Part shown: positions 8,488 through 10,254 of the stretch, in pieces
Layout of the letters: the number at the start of each line of letters is the position of its first letter
How positions within the stretch are numbered: position 1 is the first letter of the stretch
Virus record (IMG/VR): IMGVR_UViG_3300032288_000672
Span: 1-40,778 of that record
Direction: 5' to 3' (one strand)
Origin: a virus
Lineage: Duplodnaviria > Caudoviricetes
Length of the DNA stretch: 40,778 nt
Notes under the pieces: model-generated
The model's input: only the letters and a program-made list of their open reading frames with translations
What the model was told of the DNA's origin: nothing
Databases searched by the model: none
Made by a program: the position numbers and the translations under genes

Positions 8488-9325
8488 TATCAATACCCTT
8501 GTCGGTGACATCTATAAAATCTTAAAGGAAGGTGTGGAAATAAATGAAGACCAAGCAGAAGACTTCGGTAAAAGGATTGGGACGCTCATCAAAGAAAGGC
8601 TCTCTCCTCGTCAAGAAAGGAAAGGCACCCTCCGCCTCTCGAACCTTGGTAAGAAAGACAGGCAACTCTGGTATGAAACCCATGGTTACAAAGGTGAAGA
8701 CTTCAACGCCAGCACCTATTTCAAATTTCTTTATGGAGATTTACTTGAAGAGCTTGTTCTATTTCTGGCCGAAGTCTCAGGCCACCGGGTTGAAGGAAGA
8801 CAAGGAGAAGTCTACGTTGATGGCATTCTTGGTCATCGTGATGCTTTTGTCGATGGCGTTCTTGTTGATGTAAAGTCTACATCATCTTACGCTTTCAAAA
8901 AGTTCAAAGAAGGAACACTGAAAGATGACGATCCCTTTGGTTATTACACTCAGCTTTCTGGTTATATTGCTGATAGCCAGTATGGTCGTGATCACGGAGC
9001 CTTCCTTGCTGTGGACAAGCAGAACGGTACGTTGGCTTTACTTCCTGTCTCTGCTGCTGACACTGTTGATGTTTATGCACGAATCGCTCACCTGAAAAAA
9101 GTTATTGCATCTGATACCCCACCTGAACGCTGCTATGAACCTGAACCTATGGGTAAGAGTGGTAACATGAAACTGGGTACTGGATGTTCTTACTGCGCTT
9201 TCAAGAACGAGTGTTGGAAAGATGCCAATGATGGAACAGGACTTCGTAAGTTTCTTTACAGTACTGGCCCTGCTTGGCTTACTACTGTGGTTGAACTTCC
9301 AAAGGTAATGGAAGTTGAGCCGTGA
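8468..9325 (+). CDS. PD-(D/E)XK exonuclease (Cas4/RecB-like)
   Basis: LRLSNLG, GHRD..VD..LVDVKS, Y..QL..Y, C-terminal CSYC.FK.EC; GTG start inferred. Confidence 0.8.
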   Translation: MTETTASINTLVGDIYKILKEGVEINEDQAEDFGKRIGTLIKERLSPRQERKGTLRLSNLGKKDRQLWYETHGYKGEDFNASTYFKFLYGDLLEELVLFLAEVSGHRVEGRQGEVYVDGILGHRDAFVDGVLVDVKSTSSYAFKKFKEGTLKDDDPFGYYTQLSGYIADSQYGRDHGAFLAVDKQNGTLALLPVSAADTVDVYARIAHLKKVIASDTPPERCYEPEPMGKSGNMKLGTGCSYCAFKNECWKDANDGTGLRKFLYSTGPAWLTTVVELPKVMEVEP

Positions 9326-9717
9326 AGTATGGACATTGGGAGTACTCTGGTAAGATAGACGTTGACAGTTCTTTTGGCTTCGTGTATCTTATTACTAACA
9401 CAATCACTGGTAAGCGTTATCTTGGCAAGAAACAGTTTCATTCATACAAGAAAAAGAAACGAGTATCTGAAACCAAGTGGCGTGAGTACACAGGTTCATC
9501 TACTGAGTTAAATGATGACATCAGGAACATGGGGAAGAATAACTTCAAGTTCCAGATCCTGCAAGTGTACAAGACCAGAGGTGGTCTGGTGTATGGTGAA
9601 GCTAACATACAGCATAAACTGAACACTCTGACTGAGACTGACAAGAATGGGGATAGGCTTTGGTACAACAAGCAGATTGGTAGTATCAAGTTTATCCCGA
9701 AAGAATACTACCCGTAG
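9322..9717 (+). CDS. GIY-YIG family endonuclease
   Basis: GFVYLITNTITGKRYLGKKQF, W..Y.GSS, conserved E, WYN. Confidence 0.8.
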   Translation: MKYGHWEYSGKIDVDSSFGFVYLITNTITGKRYLGKKQFHSYKKKKRVSETKWREYTGSSTELNDDIRNMGKNNFKFQILQVYKTRGGLVYGEANIQHKLNTLTETDKNGDRLWYNKQIGSIKFIPKEYYP

Positions 9718-9784
9718 CACAACTGGACAGTGCAACAGCCTTCTAAGCTGTAGGTTGCTGGTTCGAGTCCAGCCGGGTAGGCCA
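9708..9784 (+). tRNA. tRNA-Arg (anticodon UCU)
   Basis: Acceptor CTACCCG/CGGGTAG, anticodon arm ACAGC-CTTCTAA-GCTGT, T-loop GGTTCGAGTCC, encoded CCA. Confidence 0.92.
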
Positions 9785-10006
9785 AAGGACTGGCCAGTTC
9801 TGTATCCCCTTGCGGGCTGGCTTGCGGCAAGTTCGTCCGCCTAGAGATGAGGGAGATGCTGCCATACTGGACGGGGGTATGGCTTAAGACAATGGCTTCT
9901 GCGGAAAGGTAGTGGTCATAGCCCGTCCCTTTAACAGCGAAAGGCTACAGGGTCGCTCCCTGATACCTGACTGGGGGAGCCAGTGACAGGCGGGGAAAGA
10001 CCCGCA
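9785..10006 (+). ncRNA. Putative structured ncRNA, domain 1 (pseudoknotted)
   Basis: Hairpins GCGGGC/GTCCGC, GCCATAC/GTATGGC, CAGGG/CCCTG, ACTGG/CCAGT, GCGGG/CCCGC; loop GGACGGG 9869-9875 complementary to CCCGTCC 9922-9928; no credible ORF. Confidence 0.65.
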
Positions 10007-10036
10007 CAAATTTGCAGTAATGCAATTCCATTGCCT

Positions 10037-10175
10037 TTGGGTTAAGGAGAAAGAGGGGTAACGACCTACCCCAGCCGATAGGGGATTTCTCGGCCTAGTA
10101 GATGCCCGTTGTCGTGACGGGGTTGCGAACGGTGGACTATTCACGGATAGTCCTTAAAATTGTATCGGCACCCAA
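10037..10175 (+). ncRNA. Putative structured ncRNA, domain 2 (multibranch, kissing loop)
   Basis: TTGGGT/ACCCAA and GCCGATA/TATCGGC closing helices; hairpin loops ACGAC (10061-10065) and GTCGT (10111-10115) complementary; GGACTATT/GATAGTCC hairpin. Confidence 0.6.
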
Positions 10176-10179
10176 CTAT

Positions 10180-10254
10180 GCCGGGTTAGCTCAGCGGTAG
10201 AGCAGCGGTTTTGTAAACCGAAGGTCGGGAGTTCAATCCTCTCACTCGGCACCA
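10180..10254 (+). tRNA. tRNA-Thr (anticodon UGU)
   Basis: Acceptor GCCGGGT/ACTCGGC, D arm GCTCAGCGGTAGAGC, anticodon loop TTTGTAA, T-loop GTTCAATC, encoded CCA. Confidence 0.93.

Follow-up and report, generated by a model that had tools for sequence, protein, structure and literature searches.

A structured spacer between two phage tRNA genes

The window, by which we mean the whole stretch of DNA analyzed (40,778 nt), is a terminally redundant phage genome of 40.8 kb, in which comparison with PHROG families reveals genes for primase/helicase, DNA polymerase, ribonucleotide reductase, terminase, and capsid. Since its terminase is 73% identical to that of Lentibacter phages ICBM1/3 and Celeribacter phage P12053L, we take this phage to be a relative of the cobaviruses, and its host is likely an alphaproteobacterium. 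Part of the stretch is present in 20 public runs from 13 studies, mostly of freshwater or aquaculture origin. None of the 20 runs on record is an RNA run, and the source of Logan contig X20, used below, is probably DNA. Runs X1, X2, X3, X5, and X20 were examined for variants of the cassette; X1 may be the sample from which the window itself derives.

The genes for tRNA-Arg and tRNA-Thr are separated by a gap of 395 nt (Table 1), originally noted to be GC-rich and to lack a credible open reading frame (ORF). This is borne out by its GC content of 54.4%, as against 44.3% for the genome (only 1.2% of 395-nt windows are equally GC-rich), and by the two ORFs that touch it (9647-9844 on the plus strand, 65 aa; 9884-10144 on the minus strand, 86 aa), which have no match in PHROG and are interrupted by stops and frameshifts in homologues. 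Since the flanking genes are all on the plus strand and no convincing terminator was found within the array region, the array is likely co-transcribed with the tRNAs, within the replication-gene transcript. A conserved sigma-70 promoter was considered and rejected: the TTGACA at 9362 recurs only in loci L074 and L090, and a loose match to a sigma-70 promoter of some kind is found in 12 of 40 loci. Upstream, at 9322-9717, a gene encodes a short SegE-type GIY-YIG protein (PF19835), its stop codon lying inside tRNA-Arg, as it also does in 6 of the 10 relatives that have this gene. RNase P maturation would thus leave a stop-less GIY-YIG mRNA, a possible brake on the nuclease. A functional link between this gene and the cassette was discarded because 10 of the 38 relatives that lack the cassette have the gene, and none of five module-bearing records of other phages, one of them complete, was found to contain it.

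The gap as a whole folds better than shuffled controls with a z-score of -2.8, none of 100 shuffles being as good on the plus strand and one of 100 on the minus strand. Because both strands give this z-score, the assignment to the plus strand, which had also been proposed, rests instead on the orientation of the tRNAs and on one-sided changes among homologues that preserve G-U pairs on that strand. Rfam covariance models matched only tRNAs, both in the whole window (E ≤ 5) and at 9760-10200 (E ≤ 10), where the gap itself shows no match to a degenerate tRNA or a known element. No group I intron, RNase P, tmRNA, or manA was matched by Rfam in the window, and neither ARAGORN nor Rfam detects a tRNA in the gap. 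Together with the homologues described below, this supports a conserved, uncatalogued structured RNA on the plus strand.

Table 1. Features of the tRNA-Arg/tRNA-Thr interval, in window coordinates
Feature	Position	Strand	Remarks
tRNA-Arg(TCT)	9708-9784	+	CCA encoded; 5′ bracket of gap
A (A1+A2), tandem H-type pseudoknots	9792-9929	+	Covariation
A1, H-type pseudoknot	9792-9859	+	Homologue alignment, covariation
A1 P1	9792-9800/9814-9822	+	Invariant, 9 pairs
A1 pseudoknot helix	9802-9812/9848-9859, bulge 9854	+	11 pairs, 3 compensatory
A1 loop 3 hairpin	9824-9827/9837-9840	+	
A2	9860-9929	+	Also found without A1
A2 first hairpin	9861-9867/9877-9883	+	
A2 loop/3′-end helix	9869-9875/9922-9928	+	Predicted
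A2 variable hairpin	9890-9897/9914-9921	+	A.A mismatch conserved
Optional insert, 105 nt	9932-10036	+	Single C instead in short form
B core, three hairpins	9948-10007	+	Widespread phage motif
B first hairpin	9948-9952/9958-9962	+	Loop UCGCU
B AC..GU hairpin	9970-9974/9980-9984	+	GACAG after
B GAAAGA-loop hairpin	9990-9994/10001-10005	+	
GUAA-tetraloop hairpin in optional insert	10012-10025	+	Sequence
C, closed double-pseudoknot domain	10038-10174	+	Covariation
C closing helix	10038-10042/10170-10174	+	Two compensatory pairs
C hairpins	10055-10057/10065-10067; 10069-10072/10081-10084; 10134-10137/10150-10153	+	
C loop-loop pseudoknot	10061-10064/10112-10115	+	One compensatory pair
C second pseudoknot	10074-10079/10164-10169	+	One compensatory pair
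tRNA-Thr(TGT)	10180-10254	+	CCA encoded; 3′ bracket of gap

Modules A, B, and C

Module A begins 7 nt after the CCA of tRNA-Arg. In an alignment of six sequences, its 41 pairs are 99.6% paired and nine are compensatory, including the three in the A1 pseudoknot helix. A2, whose parts are joined by an A-rich linker, was aligned in nine sequences, where 9 of 21 pairs are compensatory, all in its two hairpins, and Logan contig X20 adds two more (9863/9881 and 9864/9880). The A2 loop/3′-end helix is predicted only, since it is invariant across the alignment and itself served as the search pattern. Between A1 and A2, two cross-pairings (8 and 7 bp), invariant in all six sequences, could compete with this helix, though A2 also exists without A1. 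The A model recovers two loci missed by nhmmer (L070, E = 7e-4; L083, E = 6e-5) and gave no score to four chance matches of the same search pattern. In the loci examined, what precedes A2 is either a pseudoknot or a tRNA. In L083 (~835-890), the place of A1 is taken by a perfect two-helix H-type pseudoknot (9+9 bp) of unrelated sequence.

The anatomy of A2 raises the question of catalysis. Pistol ribozymes have a hairpin-loop pseudoknot, an A-rich linker, and a conserved G after the pseudoknot, followed by P3 and the scissile site. A2 has a predicted hairpin-loop pseudoknot of this topology (that helix being the search pattern) together with an A-rich linker, and it is reminiscent of the pistol scaffold in its UUAA linker and in the AG that precedes the 3′ strand. 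A2, or else B, which is placed just before downstream units, could then be a self-cleaving ribozyme that punctuates the transcript. We consider this very improbable, because Rfam shows no ribozyme match, the inner hairpin of A2 is self-closed, and the catalytic part of pistol is missing: in all nine sequences the pseudoknot is followed by C and then variable bases. HDV-like/theta ribozymes, in which a nested double pseudoknot with P3/L3 starts at a tRNA 3′ end, were likewise excluded for A1, since its loop forms a single 11-bp covarying helix that leaves no P3/L3; A1 moreover starts 7 nt behind the CCA and has no Rfam match.

As for module C, its 26 pairs are 100% paired in five sequences, and eight are compensatory. 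Its second pseudoknot helix, on the 3′ side, is followed by an ACC, similar to the acceptor ends (GCCG..CGGC-ACCA) that tRNA-Thr has in these arrays. Three of the five sequences read ACCA at this point, and A2 of L070 ends in CCA, which might suggest that C (or A2) is a mimic of a tRNA acceptor stem with a free CCA end, charged or attacked instead of a tRNA. However, the ACCA of C pairs with its own 5′ end, with compensatory swaps (UA/CG/AU and GC/UA), the window and L064 read ACCCA, and only one of nine A2 sequences ends in ACCA. Since the apparent tail is base-paired and variable, a free CCA tail was dropped, and mimicry by C is decidedly improbable. Plant-virus tRNA-like structures also have a pseudoknot near a 3′ ACC(A), a feature shared by C, but C is without a T-arm or anticodon arm and its ACCA is paired and not conserved. 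Membership of the tRNA or tRNA-like class was rejected, there being no cloverleaf or T-arm match in the gap and no match to a tRNA-like structure in Rfam.

Compensatory pairs among homologues were thus found in A (9), C (8), and B (5, see below), and covariation covers three of the four pseudoknots (one in A1, two in C). In each of four counts (A, A2, C, and the first hairpin of B), none of 500 shuffles reached the observed covariation score, which is support rather than a P value, because the structures were derived from the same few, related sequences. Similarly, the numbers of compensatory cells overstate the numbers of events because the alignments are small (5-9 sequences from two or three lineages, with the duplicates L076/L064, L087/L080, and L073/L070 counted once). 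As nested structures, A1, A2, and C each fold no better than shuffles (z-scores of -0.9, -1.3, and -1.5, as against -4.3 for the B core). The original prediction of stacked hairpins was therefore right in that structured RNA is present, but its minimum-energy picture misses the pseudoknots revealed by covariation.

The optional insert is absent from the short form, whose joint (9931>10037) is found in runs X1, X2, and X5 and in L064. The first hairpin of B, which was not in the search pattern, has five of six pairs compensatory in 13 sequences. The window at 9970-10007 fits a pan-phage motif consisting of an AC..GU helix, GACAG, a 5-bp stem with a GARAGA loop, and AC. This motif was found at at least 119 loci, 97 of them distinct among those listed (about 270 stretches are estimated), and an AC..GU helix of ≥5 bp, absent from the pattern, lies upstream in 55 of 96 listed loci, versus 10 expected. 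GAAA- and GUAA-type loops had also been noted. GARAGA recurs at these ≥119 loci, although as part of the search pattern its recurrence is not independent, whereas the A2 loop GGAAAG is variable across homologues and the GUAA hairpin turned up in no more than the window and a single Logan contig, in which a C>T change at 10023 retains a G-U pair. Rfam found no match at the motif in 20 loci scanned, and a GUCGC/GUGAC pseudoknot within B was considered and dropped.

A Shine-Dalgarno sequence and start codon occur within 45 nt downstream of B in 34 of the 97 distinct listed loci (5.5 expected). A tRNA lies nearby in nine of the 97, always on the same strand, and starts within 15 nt in six; the other 88 have no tRNA within ~500 nt. 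In Rhizobium phage B1VFA, B immediately precedes tRNA-Cys. From these positions, B looks like an element placed 5′ of a downstream unit, and there is about an even chance that it serves to mark or protect the start of the unit that follows. That B lies within a long stop-free frame, on either strand, in 67 of the 97 loci is uninformative because the DNA is GC-rich. In lambdoid phages, boxB of the nut site has a five-base GNRA-like loop, with boxA upstream. The last hairpin of B is similar in having a 5-bp stem and a purine-rich GA-loop, but a nut-site boxB was rejected since the loop has six bases, there are two extra conserved helices, and a boxA-like sequence is upstream in only 1 of 97 listed loci. 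The A and C models have no match in the 97 distinct listed loci of the B motif.

Distribution and exchange of the modules

Relatives were collected via the neighboring phosphoesterase gene, which yielded 49 loci, 38 with the Arg-Thr pair (21 distinct sequences) and 11 without a tRNA. In these 38, the Arg-Thr spacer measures 0-5 nt in 35 (0-1 nt in 32) and 48, 55, and 97 nt in the other three, with no trace of the cassette in any, which makes the cassette an optional insertion. The close relatives L074 and L090, found by pattern search (their GIY-YIG protein is 82% identical), have A but no B or C at the site. Their tRNA-Arg is identical to that of the window at 70 of 77 positions, and by this measure tRNA-Arg is native to the cobavirus-like lineage. 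tRNA-Thr, in contrast, is identical at 74 of 75 positions to those of L064 and of G001, a complete phage genome of 56 kb, and at no more than 58 of 75 to those of cobavirus-like relatives. It was therefore likely imported with the cassette, the two moving as a block.

The modules occur in several combinations: A+B+C in the window and in one X3 contig, there after the end of a tRNA-Pro; A+C in L064, L080, and L081, and with the short-form joint in X1, X2, and X5; A alone in L074 and L090; A2 alone in L086, behind tRNA-Pro, and in the divergent L070 and L083; and C alone in L097, behind a tRNA-type CCA end, on a contig that starts just before C. A sits 3-7 nt behind four tRNA ends. G001 shares with the window A (94% identity) and C with tRNA-Thr (92%), but otherwise only four short matches to the first 20 kb; its terminase shows 26% identity across a fragment of 118 residues, and the phosphoesterase is missing. 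Such similarity in an unrelated phage implies horizontal exchange, likely by recombination through tRNA genes, the main sequence common to these phages. Two duplications may be signs of recombination at these tRNAs: in L008, an HNH-like ORF (as read from the sequence) is inserted behind tRNA-Thr with a duplicated tRNA-Thr 3′ half, and the Arg-Thr spacer of L027 contains a duplicated tRNA-Arg 3′ half.

The B motif is widespread, while A and C are rare. Searches with A+C by blastn gave only short chance matches in cultured phages and no match in plasmids. A pattern scan of prokaryote genomes returned one locus, a chance match. Two other scans gave no loci and 0 of 13 homologous, respectively, and chance loci made up 12 of 21, 1 of 2, 2 of 7, and 1 of 2 in four further ones. 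Together, these findings show that the cassette consists of structured, modular elements that are patchily distributed and exchanged between unrelated phages, of which we are all but certain. Might they nevertheless be neutral passengers, decayed tRNAs or a GOLLD/ROOL fragment carried with tRNA-Thr? The cassette is dispensable in 38 relatives and the L027 spacer has a short tRNA remnant, but the many compensatory pairs, including those in pseudoknots, and the lack of a tRNA, GOLLD, or ROOL match at E ≤ 10 largely refute this reading, which we consider extremely improbable.

Other elements were seen around these arrays. The slot after tRNA-Thr holds an optional gene of ~100 codons, which looks RlpA-like by a sequence motif, in L003, L007, L023, L025, L027, L030, and L033. 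A conserved RNA-like element (L226, 12181-12209, reverse complement; also in L227, L229, L097, and L081), with no Rfam match in the loci scanned, follows a TTGACA site resembling a promoter; in G001-type phages it lies after the tRNA array and next to the terminase gene, in the interval between the two. A long-hairpin module just 5′ of A (L230, 4057-4122; L227, 2431-2496, reverse complement) is common to one cobavirus-like and one G001-type phage, and L230 has another unannotated stretch of ~110 nt and a tRNA-Gly-like gene. Beside these modules, L090 (804-880, reverse complement), L065 (682-779), L066 (786-893), and L227 (2352-2423, reverse complement) have genes shaped like tRNAs whose anticodon arms are odd or expanded.

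Possible roles and known counterparts

RNase P acts at tRNA 5′ ends, and tRNAs also undergo 3′ maturation. If RNase P cuts at 10180 and the 3′ end of tRNA-Arg is matured at 9784, the spacer would be set free; pseudoknotted 5′ ends and the paired ends of C would slow exonucleases, yielding decay-resistant RNAs. We regard such release and protection as probable, and the close spacing in most arrays (3-8 nt) is in keeping with excision of this kind. There is no tRNA between A and C, so an internal A/C cut is unexplained; in the long form, B might serve at this separation.

Once released, A and C may act in trans as decoys that bind host proteins of tRNA metabolism or translation and help on some hosts. 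This is a guess by analogy that may well prove wrong. We favor it because the modules are dispensable, patchy, traded like counter-defense genes, and ride with tRNAs. Accessory counter-defense genes are typically dispensable, patchy, and traded between phages. Phage tRNAs themselves are reported to have counter-defense roles (PMC10264068, PMC11464382, and PMC11555353). The main rival is a role in cis, in which the modules serve as scaffolds for processing or stability, so that more of the flanking tRNAs and of downstream messages is made, with no role once excised. The modules tightly abut tRNA ends, B precedes genes as well as tRNAs, and A2 always has a pseudoknot or a tRNA upstream in the loci examined, even the unrelated 9+9-bp one of L083. 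However, in 32 of 38 relatives Arg and Thr are separated by 0-1 nt without any such element, and a spacer would not need three distinct complex folds whose unpaired bases are invariant, which makes a purely cis role rather unlikely. Alternatively, A2 and C could be orphan aptamers that soak up a small molecule (a nucleotide immune signal or ppGpp). Compact pseudoknots with invariant bases at junctions are riboswitch-like in anatomy, and both modules are compact pseudoknots with invariant unpaired bases beside helix junctions, with no gene or terminator behind. Yet Rfam shows no riboswitch match and the invariance may reflect few, related sequences, so we find this improbable. The reading as a whole, an optional, exchanged array of structured RNA modules probably released by host tRNA enzymes and possibly serving as host-protein decoys, is put forward tentatively. 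A broader proposal is doubtful: tRNA clusters would be a shared platform for traded pseudoknot RNA genes of 60-140 nt, with A and C as decoys or sponges against tRNA-targeting defenses or nucleotide immune signals.

The closest known counterparts, though analogues only, are the T4 species 1/2 RNAs. Like the modules of the window, the small RNAs rnaC (139 nt) and rnaD (119 nt) belong to a tRNA cluster and abut tRNA ends; they lie directly behind tRNA-Arg, downstream of a GIY-YIG gene (L091 locus). The rnaD RNA starts with a hairpin like the first of B (GGGUCGCU). The A and C models do not match rnaC/rnaD at E ≤ 1, and the B model reaches rnaD homologues only at E = 0.7-5, via this first hairpin (3 of 6 among the matches listed). 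We know of no modularity across unrelated phages for the T4 pair. These RNAs (RNAC and RNAD) were detected as late RNAs (PMC9697503), and their roles are given as unknown in PMC3014915, PMC9697503, and PMC12685909.

The cassette had been proposed to be one or two RNAs of a new class, or a miniature relative of ROOL and GOLLD. ROOL averages 581 nt and many GOLLD RNAs exceed 800 nt, both being pseudoknot-rich and near tRNA islands (PMC5737381 and PMC12286853). A homo-oligomeric nanocage is a further mark of these families. The window modules share the pseudoknots and the phage tRNA neighborhood, but they are 60-140 nt long, separable, and without an Rfam match; a 395-nt gap of three to four separable modules, with no covariance-model match, speaks against membership of these ~580- or >800-nt families. 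That the RNA is conserved and has no Rfam family is borne out, while the notion of one or two RNAs gives way to several modules. They are uncatalogued RNA families of a known kind (the T4 species 1/2 type), with a function that is only predicted. We found no description of them in the literature, where coverage of subscription papers is thin, and passages on manA (PMC2864571, PMC9964418) and from a tRNA review (PMC4810235) contain nothing specific to them. B in particular, or another of the modules, may already figure without a name among the 8,495 covarying viral RNA candidates (29-151 nt) drawn from IMG/VR by Fremin et al. 2023 (PMC10690425).

The modules represent three short tRNA-cluster RNA families with covariation-backed folds, exchanged between unrelated phages, and offer natural variants (long, short, A2-only, C-only, and none) in a 41-kb phage setting. 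They are small enough for direct expression, probing, and pull-down, making the role of tRNA-cluster RNAs testable. Should they be counter-defense RNAs, they would widen a class that consists almost wholly of proteins. Two minor observations concern hammerhead-like sequences. Homologues of rnaD (L091, 854-972) have conserved ends, a variable middle, and no stem I, and keep a set of motifs that looks hammerhead-like. In L078 (~880-1010), a chance pattern match looks like a hammerhead ribozyme in its core motifs.
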